Shown piece after piece: positions 5,803-16,781 of a DNA stretch of 64,000 nt. The notes beneath the pieces were generated by a model. The model worked only from the letters and a program-made list of their open reading frames with translations. It had not been told where the DNA came from and did no database searches. Position 1 is the first letter of the stretch. Every line of letters begins with the position of its first letter. The translations under genes and the position numbers were made by a program. Source of the DNA: Chitinophagia bacterium. Its GTDB lineage: Bacteria; Bacteroidota; Bacteroidia; Chitinophagales; Chitinophagaceae. The stretch spans positions 21,799 through 85,798 of the forward strand of contig CAVZDO010000002.1 of assembly GCA_963774065.1 (NCBI GenBank), in the 5' to 3' direction.

Positions 5803-6225
5803 TCATTTAAGAGCATTTGGATTTTTATCTACGAAATAAAAAAGAATAGTTCTTTCTAAGTCATCATTCTTGTAATAGTTGTGTAGTTCATCTCCTTTTT
5901 GAATTATTACTCCATCGTAAGTGGTATAAAAAACTTCAAATGATTTATAAGTTCCGTCTTTAAGATTAAGAATCATTTCGTATGAGCCGAAAGTCTGTCT
6001 TAGATTAGCTTCCTGTGTTGGTTTTATATTATTTACTTCCCACACTAATCTTTTTATTGCGAACCAGCTATTCAGCGTAATTTTTTTTGGATTACCTGTA
6101 TTGATGCTGGTACGATCGTAAATTACTATATCCTTTACATCTGTACTATTAATATCTCCCTTTGAATGATTGTAATGGCATGAAAACAACAATATCAAAA
6201 ATACAATCGATAATTTTTTATTCAT
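5803..6225 (-). CDS. Small lipoprotein, beta-rich domain of unknown function
   Basis: The signal peptide with lipobox-like LLFSC is followed by a domain of about 120 aa. A paralogous copy lies at 6341-6706. Confidence 0.6.
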   Translation of the reverse strand: MNKKLSIVFLILLFSCHYNHSKGDINSTDVKDIVIYDRTSINTGNPKKITLNSWFAIKRLVWEVNNIKPTQEANLRQTFGSYEMILNLKDGTYKSFEVFYTTYDGVIIQKGDELHNYYKNDDLERTILFYFVDKNPNALK

Positions 6226-6340: not shown

Positions 6341-6706
6341 TCATTTAAGTGCGTTTGGATTTTTATCTACGAAATAATAAAGAATAGTTCTTTCTAAGTC
6401 ATCATTCTTGTAATAGTTGTGTAGTTCATCTCCCTTTTGAATTATTACTCCATCGTAAGTTGTATAAAAAACTTCGAATGATTTATAAGTTCCGTCTTTA
6501 AGATTAAGAATCATTTCGTATGAGCCGAAAGTCTGTCTTAGATTAGCTTCCTGTGTTGGTTTTATATTATTTACTTCCCACACTAATCTTTTTATTGCGA
6601 ACCAGCTATTCAGCGTAATTTTTTTTGGATTACCTGTATTGATGCTGGTACGATCGTAAATTATTATATCCTTTACATCTGTGCTATTAATATCTCCCCT
6701 ACTCTT
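6341..6706 (-). pseudogene. 5'-truncated paralog of the 5803..6225 lipoprotein (no signal peptide, no ATG), possibly still translated
   Basis: 369 bp (6330-6698) are near-identical to 5792-6160. The reading frame continues in frame from the TAA stop of ORF 6707..7372. Confidence 0.5.
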
Positions 6707-9034: not shown

Positions 9035-9330
9035 TTTCTTGTAGTAAAAGTTTCTCCTCTTTTAATAAAAGTAGCTCCTCTTGTGATAACTGTTCTTTTT
9101 CTTTTGATAAAAGAAACTACTCTCCTGATAATAGAAGAACTTCTTTTGATAAAAGAAACTACTCTCCTGATAATAGAAGAACTTCTTTTGATAAAAGAAG
9201 AAGTTCTTTTGCTTACTGAAGAACTTCTTTTGATAAAAGAAACTACTCTCCTGGTAATAGAAGAACTTCTTTTGATAAAAGAAAATGCTCCTTTGATAAC
9301 AGAAGAAATTCTTTTGCCCGCGGAAAACAA
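9035..9330. repeat. Phased 21-bp / 42-bp tandem repeat array (about 14 half-units)
   Basis: The unit is cttttgataaaagaaactact / ctcctgataatagaagaactt. Each contains TGATAA and the small palindromes TTCTTTTgatAAAAGAA and AGAAGaaCTTCT. Both strands are open (ORFs 9004..9351 and 9083..). Confidence 0.9.
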
Positions 9331-9466: not shown

Positions 9467-10087
9467 ATGAAACCCTCTAAAGTTGTAATTAGCTTTACTT
9501 CTTTATCCGATGGCAACCTTGAAGCAAAAGCGCTTTCCATTATTGATGCAATGACGGACAATCCTAATTTTCCCAACCCTGTTCCTCCCCTTTCAGATCT
9601 AAGCGCAGCGCTTACCGATTATTCCAATGCATTATCCGGCGCAAAAACGAAAGACAGAACAATGGTGGCAATTAAAAACATTAAAAGAGAGGCATTGATT
9701 GCAGTGTTGAGAAATGTAGCCGCTTATGTAAGTTTTACAGCTAACGGTAACAGGAGTGTAATTACAAGCTCCGGTTTTGATATCAGCAAAGAGGGTAAAA
9801 CACCGCAGACCATGAGCGCCCCAAAGAACTTTAAAATTACTATCGGTAAAGCCCCCGGTCAGGCATTTTCGAGCGTTGGTGGTGTTAAGGGCGTAAAAAC
9901 ATATGCTCATCAATACACGGCCGACCCATTGACAGACACGAGTGTGTGGCAGAGTGAATATGTTACAACACGCTTTCACACTTTTAATGGATTGACTTCC
10001 GGAAAAAAATATTGGTTTCGCGTGGCTGTGCTCGGCACCGGCGGCCAAATTGAATATACTGACCCGGTTGCATTGATTATTCAGTAA
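9467..10087 (+). CDS. Hypothetical protein with helical N-domain and C-terminal fibronectin type III-like domain
   Basis: ATG at 9467 follows an AT-rich leader. The C-terminal pattern (NFKITIGKAPGQ...YWFRVAVLGTGG) is Fn3-like. GC content looks higher than in neighbouring genes. Confidence 0.7.
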   Translation: MKPSKVVISFTSLSDGNLEAKALSIIDAMTDNPNFPNPVPPLSDLSAALTDYSNALSGAKTKDRTMVAIKNIKREALIAVLRNVAAYVSFTANGNRSVITSSGFDISKEGKTPQTMSAPKNFKITIGKAPGQAFSSVGGVKGVKTYAHQYTADPLTDTSVWQSEYVTTRFHTFNGLTSGKKYWFRVAVLGTGGQIEYTDPVALIIQ

Positions 10088-10114
10088 AGAGTGTCTTTTT
10101 GCTTATTCATAGAA

Positions 10115-10148
10115 CCCTGCGCCAAGGAAACGAGGCGCGGGGTTTTTT
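10115..10148 (+). terminator. Intrinsic terminator after the Fn3-like gene
   Basis: The stem CCCTGCGCC / GGCGCGGGG is followed by TTTTTT. Confidence 0.75.
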
Positions 10149-10301
10149 ATGATTTTTATTAAAGTCTAACGTTCATGCATAACCGAAGCAAAACAACGGC
10201 GAAGAATTAGAAATAAGAAATAAATAATAAGAAATGAGAAAGTAGTTGCTCTCCGCACTTCCTTATTCCTTATTTCAAATTTCTCAGTTCTTATTTTTCA
10301 G

Positions 10302-10405
10302 ATTCCTGCCTTCGCAGGAATGACGGTAACTCTCTGATAAATTATAAAATTATTGTTGTGTAAAATTACTTACGCACTCGCCGTCATTCCCGCGCAGGCG
10401 GGAAT
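10302..10405. repeat. Inverted pair of GGAATGACGG-type hairpins
   Basis: ATTCCTGCCTTCGCAGGAATGACGG (10302-10326) faces the reverse complement of CCGTCATTCCCGCGCAGGCGGGAAT (10381-10405). Each arm is itself a hairpin, and the two differ by paired compensatory changes. Confidence 0.8.
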
Positions 10406-10480
10406 CTTTTCTTTACAATAGTATTCCAAATTAAGTATTAAATTATGTTGTTCTTTCTTTTTTGTTTGTGCAAAAAAGAA

Positions 10481-10600
10481 ACAAAAAAGCCACCCGGAAA
10501 CGATAACAGCCCGTTTCCGGGATTGAATATCTATTTAGCTTTTGTACTACTGTAGCTTCAGCAGTATATCTTTATTGAAAGCTTTATCTCACAATTGAAA
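10481..10600 (-). ncRNA. Candidate sRNA, inverted family member (ends approximate)
   Basis: The minus-strand hairpin CCCGGAAACG-ggctgttat-CGTTTCCGGG (10493-10521) is followed by a U-rich tract and an A/T hairpin. Confidence 0.35.
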
Positions 10601-10659
10601 ATTGAAACTTAATTGCCTACAATTAATAATGACTATTAAATAATGCAGAACAGTCACAT

Positions 10660-10785
10660 TTTCACATGATGTTTAAATATAAGCGTACAATAGTATTACT
10701 ACAGTCGAATTCACAGTAGCACAAAAGTTATATCAAGGAACGATCTCCAAAACGGGCTGTTTTCGTTTTGGAGTGTGTTTTTTGG
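10660..10785 (+). ncRNA. Candidate sRNA, copy 1 (5' end unknown)
   Basis: The hairpin CTCCAAAACG-ggctgtttt-CGTTTTGGAG (10745-10773) is followed by tgtgTTTTTT. Confidence 0.35.
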
Positions 10786-10869
10786 TTCTTTTTTTCACAG
10801 AAAAAAAAGAACAAAGAAAAATTATCTAATAATTAATATTGAAAATCTAAAATTGAACAGCCCTTACAT

Positions 10870-10995
10870 TTTCTCTTGATATTAAAATATAAGCGTACAA
10901 TAGAAATACAAAAGCTGAATTCACAGTACTACAAAAGTTCAATCAGGGAACAATCCCGAAAATGGGCTGTCTTCATTTTCGGGTGTGTTTTTTGG
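10870..10995 (+). ncRNA. Candidate sRNA, copy 2 (5' end unknown)
   Basis: The hairpin CCCGAAAATG-ggctgtctt-CATTTTCGGG (10955-10983) is followed by tgtgTTTTTT. Confidence 0.35.
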
Positions 10996-11079
10996 TTCTT
11001 TTTTTCACAGAAAAAAAAGAACAAAGAAAAATTATCTAATAATTAATATTGAAAATCTAAAATTGAACAGCCCTTACAT

Positions 11080-11205
11080 TTTCTCTTGATATTAAAATAT
11101 AAGCGTACAATAGAAATACAAAAGCTGAATTCACAGTACTACAAAAGTTCAATCAGGGAACAACCCCGAAAATGGGCTGTCTTCATTTTCGGGTGTGTTT
11201 TTTGG
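11080..11205 (+). ncRNA. Candidate sRNA, copy 3 (5' end unknown)
   Basis: Same hairpin as copy 2, at 11165-11193, followed by a U-tract. Confidence 0.35.
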
Positions 11206-11371
11206 TTCTTTTTTTCACAGAAAAAAAAGAACAAAGAAAAATAAATTGATAATTGTTCTTTAAAATTGTTTACGCGCTCGCCCCCTATTGCGTGAGATAT
11301 GTTTGTGTTGACATTGCCTCGTTTCCACTTCATACATTTTCTTTTTAGCTTAGCAAGAAATAAAAATTAAA

Positions 11372-11593
11372 ATGAAGATTAACCGAAAGCTGATCATTGG
11401 AATAGTATTATGTTTTATCGGACCTGTAATTTTACAAATCATATTTTTTTCTTCCCACATTGCTCAAGGCAGAAAAATACCACACAAAGCCATTCCACTT
11501 GAAATAACTGCTATTGCTATAGTTATCGCCGGCGCATATGTTATTTACCTGGGCAAAAAACAACAGAAAGAAGAAAGAGAAAACAATGACTAA
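11372..11593 (+). CDS. Small membrane protein (2 TM)
   Basis: Two hydrophobic helices and a charged KKQQKEERENND tail. A terminator lies downstream. Confidence 0.5.
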   Translation: MKINRKLIIGIVLCFIGPVILQIIFFSSHIAQGRKIPHKAIPLEITAIAIVIAGAYVIYLGKKQQKEERENND

Positions 11594-11708
11594 TTATTAT
11601 TCACCGCTAAAAATTTTATAATTACCGGTAAAAAACATCCGTAATTAAAATTGCTGCGTATATGCTCACGAATACTTTTATCAACAATTCGTCTTTGCGA
11701 AAATCATT

Positions 11709-11738
11709 GCCCTGCCATTTTACGGCGGGGCTTTTTTT
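11709..11738 (+). terminator. Intrinsic terminator
   Basis: The stem GCCCTGCC / GGCGGGGC is followed by TTTTTTT. Confidence 0.65.
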
Positions 11739-11744
11739 ATAAAT

Positions 11745-11773
11745 AAAAAAGGCGACAGTAGAAACTATCGCCT
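11745..11773 (-). terminator. Intrinsic terminator for ORF 11862..12107
   Basis: On the minus strand, AGGCGA-tagtttctactg-TCGCCT is followed by TTTTTT. Confidence 0.6.
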
Positions 11774-14201: not shown

Positions 14202-16781
14202 TTATTCGGTTGTTTCGGGTGCATCATCTTTGCCTTCCGGAAGATGTTCGCCATTTTCTTCAGGATGATGTCCGTTCTCTTCATGGTGATTGCCATTTCC
14301 AACATGTTCGTCTAACTTAGTAATGGCGGCTATTTCATCGCCGTCATCCAAACGAATCAGTTTAACACCCTGTGTTGCCCTGCCCTGCTCGCTTATGCCA
14401 ACCACCGGCATACGAATAGTTACTCCGCTTTTGCAGGTGATCATTAAATCTTCTTTTTCGGTAACATCCAAAATGCCGACAAGCTTTCCCGTTTTTTCCG
14501 TTACGTTTATCGTTTTCACCCCTTTGCCGCCACGGTTGGTTATGCGGTATTCTTCAATTGAAGTACGCTTGCCATATCCCTTTTCGCTTACAACTAAAAC
14601 TGTTCTTGTTTTATCTTCTTTGTTCACACAAATCATTCCTATAACTTCATTGCTGCTTTCTTCCACTTCAATTCCGGCAACGCCAATTGCTCCGCGGCCT
14701 GTTGGACGAACTTTTTCTTCTTCAAAGCGAATTGATCTTCCGCTTTTCACTGCCATCATAATTTCACAATTGCCGTCGGTCAACTTTGCTTCCAATAATT
14801 GATCACCTTCATTAATGGTAATTGCAATTACACCTGTTTGTCGCGGGCGACTGAAATCTTCCAAAGAAGTTTTTTTGATGGTGCCATGTTTGGTGCACAA
14901 AACAATATGATGTGATTTTACAAATGCTTCATCTTTCAAATCTTTCACGTCAATAATAGCTCTCACTTTATCATCCGGCGGAAGCTGCATTAGATTTTGA
15001 ATTGCGCGGCCTTTGCTTGTTTTATCTCCTTCCGGAATTTCGTAAATGTTCAGCCAGAAACATCTTCCTTTTTCTGTAAAAAATAACATGGTATGGTGAG
15101 AAGATGCCACAAATAAATGTTCGATATAATCTTCTTCTCTCGTTTTGCCACCTATAGCTCCGCGCCCGCCGCGTCGTTGCTGGCGGTATTCTGTTGCAGA
15201 AGTTCTTTTTATATAACCAAGATGAGAAATGGTGATAACAACATCTTCTTCTTTGATAAGATCTTTGATGCGCACTTCATCATCAAGATAAGTGATCTCT
15301 GTTTTTCTCGGGTTGCCGAATTTTTCTTTTACTTCCCGTAATTCTGTTTTTATTAATTCAAAACGTTTTGCTTCGTCTGCAAGAAGATCTTTTAATTCGG
15401 TGATAAGTTTCATCAACTCATCATATTCCTGTTTGATCTTTTCTCTTTCCATTCCGGTAAGGCGTTGCAAACGCAGTTCCAGTATGGCTTTCGCCTGAAT
15501 CTCATCCAAACCCCATCCTGCATTTATCAAATTATCTTTTGCAATATCCGGCGTTGAAGATGCACGGATCAATGCAATAACTTCATCAAGATGATCGAGC
15601 GCGGTAAGATAACCCTGAAGTATATGCGCTTTTTTCTCCGCTTCTTTTAATTCAAATTTTGCGCGGCGAATAACCACTTCATGACGGAATTCCACAAACT
15701 CGCTGATCATATCTTTTAGGTTCAGCGTTCTTGGTCTTCCTTTTACCAACGCCACATTATTTATACCATAAGAAGTTTGGAGTTCAGTGTTTTTATATAA
15801 TTGGTTGATGACAACATTTGCGATAGCATCACGCTTCAGATCAACAACAACGCGTGTTCCTTCTTTATCGTTGGATTCATTGTTGACGTGTGCAATTCCT
15901 TCAACAATTTTTTCATTTACTAATTGCCCGATTTTTTCTGTCAGCGTATCGCGGCTCACCTGGTACGGAACTTCTGTAATAATAATTTGTTCTCTTCCGC
16001 TAGCTTTGGTATCTACATGTAATTTTCCGCGAAGCACTACTCTCCCACGGCCAAAATGCATTCCTGCTTTCACTCCTTCTATTCCGAAAATAACTCCGCC
16101 TGTCGGGAAATCCGGCGCTTTGATATACTGCATCAGTTCTTCGATCGTGATCTCACGGTTATCTATATACGCAATGCAGCCATCAATTACTTCAGCAAGA
16201 TTATGCGGCATCATGTTGGTTGCCATTCCCACTGCAATTCCGGATGAACCATTTATCAATAACTGCGGAATGCGGCTGGGCAATACCATAGGTTCTTCCA
16301 GCGAGTCATCAAAATTTAATTGAAAGTTGACAGTATCTTTTTCAATATCCGCTAAAATATAATCAGAAATGCGGTGCAATCTTGCTTCTGTATAACGCAT
16401 TGCTGCGGGGCCTTCACCATCCTGGTTTCCAAAATTTCCCTGCTTATCAATTAGCGGGTAACGCATATTCCATTCCTGTGCCATGCGCACCAAAGCATCG
16501 TACACAGCAGTGTCGCCATGCGGATGATATTTTCCAAGCACTTCACCAACGATACGCGCGCATTTTTTTGTTGGGCGGTTGTAATACATTCCCATTTCAT
16601 TCATCGCAAATAAAATTCGGCGATGAACCGGTTTTAGTCCGTCACGAACATCGGGCAATGCGCGGCCAACAATTACAGACATTGAATAGTCGATGTAAGC
16701 CGTCTTCATTTGCTCCTCAATATTTACGGGAACTATGCGATTATTATCCTGCGTTTCGAGCGGTGTAAGATTATCTGCCAT
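14202..16781 (-). CDS. gyrA: DNA gyrase subunit A
   Basis: Motifs include AYIDYSMSVIVGRALPDVRDGLKPVHRR and the catalytic region AAMRYTEARL. It is 859 aa with an acidic His/Glu-rich tail. Confidence 0.97.
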   Translation of the reverse strand: MADNLTPLETQDNNRIVPVNIEEQMKTAYIDYSMSVIVGRALPDVRDGLKPVHRRILFAMNEMGMYYNRPTKKCARIVGEVLGKYHPHGDTAVYDALVRMAQEWNMRYPLIDKQGNFGNQDGEGPAAMRYTEARLHRISDYILADIEKDTVNFQLNFDDSLEEPMVLPSRIPQLLINGSSGIAVGMATNMMPHNLAEVIDGCIAYIDNREITIEELMQYIKAPDFPTGGVIFGIEGVKAGMHFGRGRVVLRGKLHVDTKASGREQIIITEVPYQVSRDTLTEKIGQLVNEKIVEGIAHVNNESNDKEGTRVVVDLKRDAIANVVINQLYKNTELQTSYGINNVALVKGRPRTLNLKDMISEFVEFRHEVVIRRAKFELKEAEKKAHILQGYLTALDHLDEVIALIRASSTPDIAKDNLINAGWGLDEIQAKAILELRLQRLTGMEREKIKQEYDELMKLITELKDLLADEAKRFELIKTELREVKEKFGNPRKTEITYLDDEVRIKDLIKEEDVVITISHLGYIKRTSATEYRQQRRGGRGAIGGKTREEDYIEHLFVASSHHTMLFFTEKGRCFWLNIYEIPEGDKTSKGRAIQNLMQLPPDDKVRAIIDVKDLKDEAFVKSHHIVLCTKHGTIKKTSLEDFSRPRQTGVIAITINEGDQLLEAKLTDGNCEIMMAVKSGRSIRFEEEKVRPTGRGAIGVAGIEVEESSNEVIGMICVNKEDKTRTVLVVSEKGYGKRTSIEEYRITNRGGKGVKTINVTEKTGKLVGILDVTEKEDLMITCKSGVTIRMPVVGISEQGRATQGVKLIRLDDGDEIAAITKLDEHVGNGNHHEENGHHPEENGEHLPEGKDDAPETTE

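Follow-up and report, generated by a model that had tools for sequence, protein, structure and literature searches.

Which kind of element fills a gene-free stretch of chromosome in which one and the same unit of ~130 nt occurs four times? The question is raised by a 64,000-nt piece of DNA from a Chitinophagia bacterium (family Chitinophagaceae, phylum Bacteroidota; GenBank assembly GCA_963774065.1, contig CAVZDO010000002.1, positions 21,799 to 85,798 of the forward strand), here called the window, and specifically by its positions 10451-11241, for which an earlier note had put forward candidate small RNA (sRNA) genes. As far as sequence analysis reaches, this interpretation is supported. The units belong to a family that exists in multiple copies in the genomes of one bacterial clade, is intergenic, lacks coding potential and possesses three helices that covary. 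They probably represent paralogous genes of an undescribed multicopy sRNA family of the Chitinophagaceae. Beyond that, we infer transcription from own promoters, base pairing in trans and a role for the 3' module with which each unit ends.

Results

Four copies of one unit in the window

Over positions 10656-11242, Tandem Repeats Finder detected a period of 210 bp (2.8 copies, 93% matches, 0% indels). A repeat search of the window returned three head-to-tail copies at 210-bp spacing, with 84% and 80% identity to the reference copy, together with an inverted arm (10448-10566 vs 10700-10818; 119 nt, 73% complementary). The full elements are unit 1, a diverged tandem copy recognised by alignment as well (10687-10821, plus strand), unit 2 (10897-11031, plus), unit 3 (11107-11241, plus; ~99% identical to unit 2 and in keeping with the 210-bp period) and an inverted unit located head to head with unit 1 (10451-10579, minus), which also emerged as an inverted repeat. 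A covariance model run on the window recovered exactly these four as full-length copies with 121-126 bits (10687-10815 with 121 bits, 10897-11025 with 126.1, 11107-11235 with 125.1, and 125.2 for the inverted unit), everything else scoring at most 19 bits. The motifs ACAGTANNACAAAAG and AAAYGGGCTGTNNTCRTTT each occur four times in the 64 kb, as compared to 0.06 and 0.14 occurrences expected by chance from dinucleotide shuffles. The description of three tandem units with an exact 210-bp period plus one diverged, inverted unit was hence borne out. So was their placement in a gene-free stretch, as positions 10088-11371 contain no open reading frame (ORF) of at least 60 aa except frames made by the repeat itself. 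The 'island' of the note fits the 3-12 kb region of low GC content (~30%) with small ORFs that have no Pfam match. The spacer separating the head-to-head units (10580-10686, assigned to neither strand) should, by inference, hold divergent promoters.

Architecture of the unit

Each unit of ~130 nt comprises a mostly unpaired 5' region, a GC hairpin (P1) and a 3' module. The 5' region spans ~60 nt and exists in at least two subtypes (...AAGAGTAGAATTACnAATGCTGAAGCY and ...ATCAGGGAACnnCTGYTCTTCACC). The subtype-specific part is followed by ACAGTAG(Y)ACAAAAGCYnAATCAGGGAAC, of which the core ACAGUAG(Y)ACAAAAG is near-invariant. Conservation starts abruptly ~24 nt 5' of ACAGTA, with no informative column further upstream, and reaches ~65 nt 5' of the hairpin, consistent with the earlier view that more is conserved than a bare terminator needs. 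Motif searches located the core in unit 1 (ACAGTAGCACAAAAG, 10713-10727, plus), where it is conserved, presumably unpaired (the alignment fold predicts no helix there) and a candidate seed, as well as in unit 2 (ACAGTACTACAAAAG, 10923-10937, plus), unit 3 (ACAGTACTACAAAAG, 11133-11147, plus) and the inverted unit (ACAGTAGTACAAAAG, 10539-10553, minus).

P1 is a stem of 10-14 bp with the loop GGGCTGTnnTC. A terminator scan placed it at 10745-10773 in unit 1 (plus; CTCCAAAACG, loop GGCTGTTTT, CGTTTTGGAG; confirmed by parsing and family covariation), 10955-10983 in unit 2 (plus; CCCGAAAATG, loop GGCTGTCTT, CATTTTCGGG; by parsing and folding), 11165-11193 in unit 3 (plus; by parsing) and 10493-10521 in the inverted unit (minus; CCCGGAAACG, loop GGCTGTTAT, CGTTTCCGGG; by sequence). 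The three stem versions quoted in the earlier note are indeed separated by two or three double, compensatory changes that can be read directly from the sequence and in the alignment, and the loop GGCTGTnnT is common to all four window copies.

Between P1 and a first U tract lies a covarying spacer of 2-5 nt, a, with which the 3' module begins. It continues with U1 (T6-7 G), x (GTTC, TTAC, GTAC, TTTC and others), U2 (T6 G), a', usually AAG, A1 (C A6 G) and x', where a' is complementary to a, and x' to x; an A-rich run often lies 3' of the module. Accordingly, two helices can form: S1 (a/a') and S2 (x U2 / A1 x'), both of which covary in the family. In unit 1, the module covers 10774-10812 on the plus strand, as obtained by parsing, with a (TGTG) at 10774-10777, U1 (TTTTTTG) at 10778-10784, x and U2 (GTTCTTTTTTT) at 10785-10795, a' (CACAG) at 10796-10800, and A1 and x' (AAAAAAAAGAAC) at 10801-10812. 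The corresponding parts on the plus strand are located at 10984-10987, 10988-10994, 10995-11005, 11006-11010 and 11011-11022 in unit 2 (module 10984-11022) and at 11194-11197, 11198-11204, 11205-11215, 11216-11220 and 11221-11232 in unit 3 (module 11194-11232). The module of the inverted unit (10453-10492, minus), read from the sequence and contained in the covariance-model match, has a (TGGC) at 10489-10492, U1 at 10482-10488, x and U2 (TTTCTTTTTTG) at 10471-10481, a' plus linker (CACAAA) at 10465-10470, and A1 and x' (CAAAAAAGAAA) at 10454-10464. A second, A/T-only hairpin behind P1 had been noted before, and it is present in four of the four window copies. What had been overlooked is that the four nucleotides between the first hairpin and the T tract, TGTG, are complementary to CACA in the loop of this A/T hairpin, which is not a passive feature but part of a conserved pseudoknot-type module that also exists outside the family.

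Two further pairings were considered for the unit. A helix closing the core into a loop (CUGA/UCAG, GUUCUUC/GAAGAAC) is formable in single copies; its register varies by subtype and RNAalifold predicts none, and it was not adopted. The idea that CUGU in the P1 loop pairs with the ACAG of the core, or else with AAAGCY, was rejected, since loop variants such as GGGAUGU are uncompensated.

A multicopy family in Chitinophagaceae

One genome per GTDB species was scanned with the pattern ACAGTANNACAAAAG-N{15,35}-GGGCTGT, for which we estimate ~23 chance matches. At least 114 loci were obtained. Of those listed, 109 belong to metagenome-assembled genomes (MAGs) or isolates of Chitinophagaceae, Chitinophagales or 'Bacteroidetes', and the remaining five are obvious chance matches inside ORFs. 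Viral contigs gave zero matches to the pattern. Among the matches listed, the carrier genera are Ferruginibacter, Segetibacter, Puia, Terrimonas, Phnomibacter, Flavihumibacter, Agriterribacter, Chitinophaga and Foetidibacter, with Foetidibacter luteolus YG09 (locus L016) as a cultured carrier and Puia MAGs (L006, L032, L043) holding the copies closest to those of the window; five to seven loci per genome were counted in, e.g., CAWDYB01, DATIEA01, JAFEAE01 and CAXUMK01. An nhmmer profile detected 172 copies in the pattern loci and the window, 51 of them without the exact pattern, and a covariance model (R1) detected 152 copies in 683 kb (100 of the loci). Because both find extra copies within the same loci, units commonly cluster, two to five of them lying in tandem or head to head. 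Genomes carry 5-10 or more copies.

The family lies outside every curated RNA family. A search of the whole window with the 4227 models of Rfam 15 (including Bacteroides BTnc sRNAs, GibS/FopS, HEARO, SAM-II and preQ1 pseudoknots) gave zero matches at the gathering threshold, a permissive Rfam scan of positions 10100-11700 returned sub-threshold noise only (e.g. BTnc005 with 15 bits vs a threshold of 175), and we found no description of the motif in the literature.

Separately, some otherwise intact copies contain GC-rich hairpins of 25-40 nt (CCCTGCCCGAC...CAGGCGGGG) inserted in the P1 loop or between U1 and U2 (L020, L038, L045, L047, L049, L071, L085, L105 and L114), evidently a second small repeat that invades the family.

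Compensatory changes and the strand that folds

Covariation was assessed in two alignments. In a MAFFT alignment of 54 copies, which had been picked for recognisable P1 and S2 and thus favours these two helices, though not S1, paired cells amounted to 97.6% for P1 (double changes at 9 of 11 pairs), 84.9% for S1 (4 of 4) and 86.6% for S2 (6 of 10). Taken together, 91.3% of all cells were paired vs 70.9% after shuffling and 50-60% when partners were slid by one to three columns, and the covariation score was 0.54 vs 0.18. RNAalifold predicted P1 and the a/a' helix from this alignment, and no helix over the 5' region. When 150 copies were aligned by the model, P1 was paired in 95% (10 of 11 pairs with double changes) and S2 in 93.5% (10 of 10); S1 reached 68% (4 of 4), because the model cannot align it. 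Overall, 24 of 25 pairs showed double changes, with a score of 0.56 that none of 500 shuffles attained (0.18 when shuffled, 0.08-0.14 when slid). The longest a/a' helix had a mean of 4.38 bp vs 2.75 +/- 0.11 when loops were dealt to other copies, and a/a' exists in more than ten versions, including CTCC/GGAG, TCGCC/GGCGA, TGTGC/GCACA, CTTGAC/GTCAAG, GCCC/GGGC, GTGG/CCAC and TGTG/CACA. The units are a structured, RNA-type element, with helices kept by compensatory change beyond the shuffled and slid controls.

As to the strand, G.U pairs outnumber A.C pairs by 51:19 in S2 and 74:16 in S1, and by 16:5 at the unconstrained x/x' positions of modules found independently in metagenomes (see below). 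Unit 2 folds with -37.7 kcal/mol on the plus strand (z -4.95) and -30.4 kcal/mol on the minus strand (z -2.3). Without being decisive, the G.U excess and the fold energies suggest that it is the given strand that folds and that S2 belongs to the transcript.

Genomic context and coding potential

No ORF of at least 110 aa overlaps the unit in 109 of 125 copies. The flanking genes occur in all four arrangements (++ 35, +- 24, -- 18, -+ 17), the upstream gene being co-oriented in 68 of 108 copies and the downstream gene in 60 of 111. The earlier note had named, as the contrary outcome, homologs that lack compensatory substitutions and sit only at the 3' ends of protein genes; what we found instead are double changes at 10 of the 11 P1 pairs and every possible gene arrangement. 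All-against-all BLASTP of the flanking ORFs revealed no recurrent neighbour protein, the largest cluster including 7 of ~115 loci. A riboswitch or 5' leader was rejected as well: position and orientation are not fixed, with a co-oriented downstream gene in no more than 60 of 111 copies, no downstream gene recurs, and units form tandem and head-to-head arrays.

That the units encode small proteins, either through a 25-codon frame (MGCLHFRVCF...) or through a frame of 52-56 codons across units 2 and 3, has next to no probability. Such frames can be read, in that ORFs of 56 and 52 codons with TTG starts span units 2 and 3, and the 25-codon ORF possesses an ATG. However, a TAG in unit 1 cuts the long frame, and the start codon of the short one, located inside a covarying stem, reads ACG rather than ATG in unit 1 as well as in the inverted unit, the stem having AAACGGG, AATCGGG or GAATGGG in other copies. 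Neither frame is preserved in homologs or has a Pfam match, in agreement with the earlier argument that the change from ATG to ACG in the 25-codon ORF speaks for an RNA. A mini-ORF in some copies (ATG CTG AAG CCA CAG TAG) was rejected because it is missing from other subtypes and from the window.

The 3' module outside the family

In 779 kb of Chitinophagaceae DNA, 94 of 123 T-T-A modules fall inside family copies, and the other terminators of the window are plain; the module is thus not the general terminator of these genomes. One contrasting example is provided by ordinary convergent intrinsic terminators at 11709-11773, which share a T7...A6 stretch, lack the pseudoknot module and sit between a 73-aa membrane ORF (11372-11593) and a minus-strand ORF of 81 aa.

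Metagenome contigs were scanned for the tracts alone (TTTTTTG-N{3,4}-CTTTTTTG-N{4,9}-CAAAAAAG). This identified at least 120 loci on contigs of 26-66% GC. Among the modules listed, 108 are distinct, with upstream sequences that form 54 clusters: ~28 modules follow the class CTGTTTGAG...GAGTT...TTTTAGC...GCAGYCTTGA (in tandem in L220, L207 and L190), ~15 belong to the window's family (family 1), ~9 follow a hairpin with a GCGGAGC loop, 8 are inverted module pairs around a GC hairpin that resemble bidirectional terminators, and ~40 are singletons. No fewer than four conserved elements, unrelated to one another, precede the module. In some loci of the pattern scan, it follows conserved sequences other than family 1. 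Here a second family, with CCACCATGCACTAAAGCC.ATTAGCGAAC, a GGGCTGT loop in its P1 and the 3' module, frequently accompanies family-1 copies as their divergent partner, and a third one carries the hairpin GGCAAAAC-GGGCGGAGC-...-GTTTGCC. At the unconstrained positions of the metagenome modules, x/x' form 3.12 contiguous pairs vs 1.11 +/- 0.12, and a/a' 3.97 vs 2.83 +/- 0.09. That these positions are still complementary argues that the module is a selected, portable structure. No neighbour protein recurred beside the metagenome modules in all-against-all BLASTP of flanking ORFs, and no Rfam family was found beside modules in 33 metagenome loci.

Several of the carriers deserve a description of their own. 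The second family is found at L094:4700-5480 and also in L005, L014, L066, L084, L087 and L104; in the ~70-nt spacer between second-family and family-1 partners there is a conserved palindrome (ATGCTGAA-N4-6-TTCAGCAT) that could be an operator or a small hairpin. Another element of ~170 nt has an outer stem around (C)TGTYTGAG-hairpin-CGAGTT, behind which come TTT(T)AGC...GCAGYCTTGA and, once again, the 3' module. It is widespread, unannotated and without Rfam match, occurs on contigs from low to ~60% GC and is sometimes in tandem (L220:1-1800 with four copies, L207, L190, L141:6540-6690, L132, L139, L214, L223 and others). Inverted U/A module pairs around a GC hairpin of ~60 nt (A-tract, hairpin, T-tract) were seen in GC-rich metagenome contigs (L154, L177, L187, L189, L209, L218, L228). 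These show an extra A/T hairpin with the loop TTCA on each side and no a/a' pairing, and again look like bidirectional terminators.

Surroundings in the window

The window is ordinary chromosome. A Pfam scan of 38 of its ORFs revealed housekeeping and glycan-degrading genes, and no transposase, integrase, Cas12f/TnpB, reverse transcriptase or RAYT was among them; neither tRNAs nor Rfam families were detected in the whole window. gyrA, read from its translation, occupies 14202-16781 on the minus strand, and the protein encoded beside it is weakly TPR-like (sub-threshold in Pfam).

Other repeats were noticed near the units. The inverted unit is separated from the gene that ends upstream of it by an inverted pair of GC hairpins (10300-10326, ATTCCTGCCTTCGCAGGAAT; 10381-10407, ATTCCCGCGCAGGCGGGAAT), each flanked by CGTCATTCC. 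This pair resembles repetitive extragenic palindromic (REP) sequences or bacterial interspersed mosaic elements (BIME) and is the only such pair in the window. At 9037-9316, ~10 head-to-tail units of 21 nt, with super-periods of 42 and 84 nt and a small palindrome (TTCTTTTGATAAAAGAA) in each, precede the probable ATG (~9473) of the gene ending at 10087; long 'ORFs' on both strands there are probably repeat artefacts. Two ORFs on the minus strand (5803-6225 and 6341-6583) share their C-terminal ~75 aa with one difference (...WEVNNIKPTQEANLRQTFGSYEMILNLKDGTYKSF...), owing to a local duplication of recent date inside the low-GC region (3-12 kb).

Discussion

The present analysis places the four units in a clade-wide family of structured, non-coding elements, which we read, with some confidence, as sRNA genes. 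Each unit would then give rise to a non-coding RNA of ~130-150 nt from the strand given above. By analogy with the single-stranded 5' seed of the FopS/GibS sRNAs discussed below, the unpaired core would likely act as a seed for target mRNAs; otherwise it may be a protein-binding site. In P1, the stem sequence would be free to change, while the conserved loop G-G/C-G-N-U-G-U might serve as a recognition site for a protein or a tertiary contact, as suggested by a loop that is conserved while its stem varies. The 3' module would most likely define or protect the 3' end, or offer a platform for a shared protein.

On the other hand, a number of observations weigh against sRNA genes. The search pattern fixed both core and loop, so their 'invariance' is in part a matter of ascertainment; the additional copies do carry one to three changes there (ACAGTAGTGCGAAAG, ACAATAG..., ACAGTAGCACTACAG, and the loops GGGATGT and GTGATGT). 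P1 has no excess of G.U over A.C pairs (14:16). No -33/-7 promoter of the Bacteroidota type is conserved at a fixed distance, be it by a TAnnTTTG profile, by column information or by binned TTTG/TAnnTTT counts; upstream of -24, all that stands out is a stretch slightly rich in A/T (-54 to -48) and a weak TTTG/TAnnTTT bump (-70 to -51), and a sigma-70-type scan of the window's units gave chance-level matches. A search for sites complementary to the core in the window and 779 kb of related loci, which has very low power, returned only chance matches or diverged copies. P1 is no textbook terminator given the 2-5 nt that precede the U tract, and 3' of the module there is nothing terminator-like and no U tract. 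Finally, head-to-head pairs and tandem arrays would suit a repetitive DNA element, too.

Two alternatives account for part of these observations. Seen as cis-acting 3'-end elements, the units would be terminator or mRNA-stabiliser cassettes placed after genes, with P1 and the U tract stopping transcription and the pseudoknot keeping 3' exonucleases out in the manner of the REP elements of E. coli. The earlier label of a 'terminator hairpin' fits in here: a loose terminator scan did mark all four P1 hairpins, despite the covarying spacer of 2-5 nt, which makes a plain terminator uncertain; transcripts may also run past P1, to judge by the strand-specific excess of G.U pairs in S2. The upstream gene is co-oriented in a moderate excess of copies (68 of 108), often within ~30-150 nt, and one metagenome class has two modules around a GC hairpin exactly like a bidirectional terminator. 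Yet, the upstream gene is on the other strand in 37% of copies, units that lie head to head or in arrays of three to five have nothing to terminate, a terminator could do without the ~60 conserved, unpaired nucleotides 5' of the hairpin, and the module is almost absent from ordinary gene ends (94 of 123 being in family copies), the window's other terminators being plain. We hence regard cis-acting cassettes as unlikely. The units might instead be non-autonomous repetitive DNA of the REP, BIME or miniature inverted-repeat transposable element (MITE) type, whose hairpins act in single-stranded DNA during mobilisation, any RNA function being incidental. Multiple intergenic copies, inverted pairs and tandem arrays would conform with this, as would assemblies that break at the repeat, the other small GC hairpins inserted into copies, and a 3' module that stands behind many unrelated sequences on contigs of 26-66% GC as if it were portable. 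REP/BIME and MITE repeats, which can stabilise upstream mRNA, share with the family that they are short, intergenic, hairpin-forming, multicopy and often arranged in inverted pairs. However, they are near-identical within a genome and species-specific, whereas the present family is conserved across genera, diverged and compensated, with a long non-palindromic core. Copies of the same genome are old and diverged (70-84% identity among those of the window), and compensated helices together with a retained core imply purifying selection on each copy. Furthermore, no transposase, RAYT or TnpB-type gene recurs near copies or modules or turned up in the scan of 38 window ORFs, the distribution of the units is limited to one bacterial family, with none of the viral contigs scanned carrying the pattern, and the excess of G.U over A.C points to one strand. 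Mobile DNA therefore seems quite improbable.

A further possibility, to which we attach very little weight, is that of scaffold-plus-guide RNAs for a protein encoded elsewhere in the genome (dCas12f-sigmaE or TnpB-like, both of which are known from Bacteroidota), with the variable sequence after the module as the guide. Guide RNAs of dCas12f can be encoded in tandem and act in trans, such systems exist in a Chitinophagaceae MAG (PMC13472631), and the succession of a conserved structured scaffold and a variable sequence would match. The published guides, however, measure 85-105 nt and mostly adjoin dcas12f (PMC13472631), and no Cas12f/TnpB-like gene recurs near copies or was among the 38 window ORFs scanned. 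A comparison of the flanks of the four units (16 nt on the 3' side, 18 nt on the 5' side) with the rest of the window, of low power in an incomplete genome, yielded nothing convincing, and the flanks of the tandem copies are identical A-rich spacer sequence.

Coming back to sRNA genes as the preferred explanation, their 3' module calls for a comment. Judged from the order a-U1-(x U2)-a'-(A1 x'), in which S1 and S2 interleave and both covary, the module has the topology of an H-type pseudoknot. Loop 1 (U1, 7-8 nt) has a length that suits crossing the deep groove of the 11-12-bp stem 2. In doing so, it would run in parallel with A1, as is the case in the U.A-U triples of telomerase RNA, SAM-II and the ENE/MALAT1 elements. 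Where the tracts are interrupted, namely in one clade (U1 T4-6CT3, U2 T3CT3-5, A1 A3-5GA3), a parallel register (Hoogsteen, C+.G-C) fits better than an antiparallel one in seven of seven informative copies, though these are related and the offset is inconstant. Tentatively, and at rather long odds, the module might be a portable device in which U1 lies in the major groove of the U6/A6 helix to form a U.A-U triplex, capping the 3' ends of several unrelated non-coding RNA (ncRNA) families: that of the window, the CCACCAUGCAC family, the GGCAAAAC...GCGGAGC hairpin family and the CUGUUUGAG...GAGUU family. Such a cap may protect from 3' exonucleases or recruit a dedicated RNA-binding protein. What argues against a pseudoknot or triplex is the linker after a' of 1-3 nt (usually AAG), which is sterically tight with a long S1, the option for U1 to pair with the purine-rich AUCAGGGAA upstream of P1 or with the downstream A run, and the module class that lacks a/a'.

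How does the family compare with known systems? H-type pseudoknots whose stem 2 is A-U-rich and accommodates a U-rich loop 1 are known from telomerase RNA, SAM-II and preQ1-II, and ENE/A-tract triple helices from MALAT1 and PAN (PMC7583470, PMC13541005). They share the module's order of stem-1 strand, U tract, U-rich stem-2 strand, stem-1 partner, short A-rich linker and A tract. They also have two U tracts per A tract, and the ENE cases are likewise located at the 3' end of an ncRNA; the module differs in that its triplex is putative, in the linker of 1-3 nt after a' and in having no ligand or telomerase context. According to the two reviews, bacterial RNA triple helices are those of riboswitches and group II introns only, none of them 3'-end-protecting (PMC7583470, PMC13541005).

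Among sRNAs, the closest analogue appears to be FopS/GibS of Bacteroides thetaiotaomicron, comprising 14 paralogs. These sRNAs have a seed that is single-stranded and 5'-located, followed by a terminator hairpin, repress susC-like mRNAs and bind the RRM protein RbpB, with expression, binding and targets shown experimentally (PMC11697453). Both families consist of many paralogous, mostly intergenic genes in Bacteroidota, with a conserved single-stranded 5' sequence and a stem-loop of variable sequence, and neither needs Hfq. They differ in the host family (Bacteroidaceae vs Chitinophagaceae) and have no similarity in sequence or model, Rfam 15, which holds the FopS structure of those authors, giving no match. 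FopS genes possess canonical sigma-ABfr promoters and a plain Rho-independent terminator, whereas the present family has no visible promoter consensus and a pseudoknot-type U/U/A 3' end; and FopS is proven by experiment, whereas our family is known from sequence alone. To our knowledge, Bacteroidota lack Hfq, ProQ and CsrA. Head-to-tail sRNA genes with a shared seed and diverged remainders are also represented by OmrA/B, PrrF1/2, Qrr1-5 and LhrC1-5 of Proteobacteria and Firmicutes. These share the duplicated-gene layout with the window's family, with unrelated sequences, and are Hfq-dependent or use CU-rich loop seeds, and end in ordinary terminators. In sum, the family would be of a known kind, namely multicopy sRNAs, yet with an unusual and apparently widespread 3' architecture.

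Chitinophagaceae are abundant in soil, freshwater and activated sludge, and we know of almost no exploration of riboregulation in Bacteroidota beyond gut Bacteroides. The family is testable, since at least one cultured carrier (F. luteolus YG09) was matched. If the module is an RNA pseudoknot or triplex cap, it would represent a new general way to form and protect 3' ends in bacteria, a bacterial equivalent of the ENE/MALAT1 triple helix or else of the Hfq-binding terminator module, and its sequence could serve as a tag by which entire classes of unannotated sRNAs are recognised in metagenomes. For the Chitinophagaceae themselves, a family that spans the clade, has 5-10 or more copies in each genome and keeps a near-invariant core of 15 nt would be a major regulatory hub.

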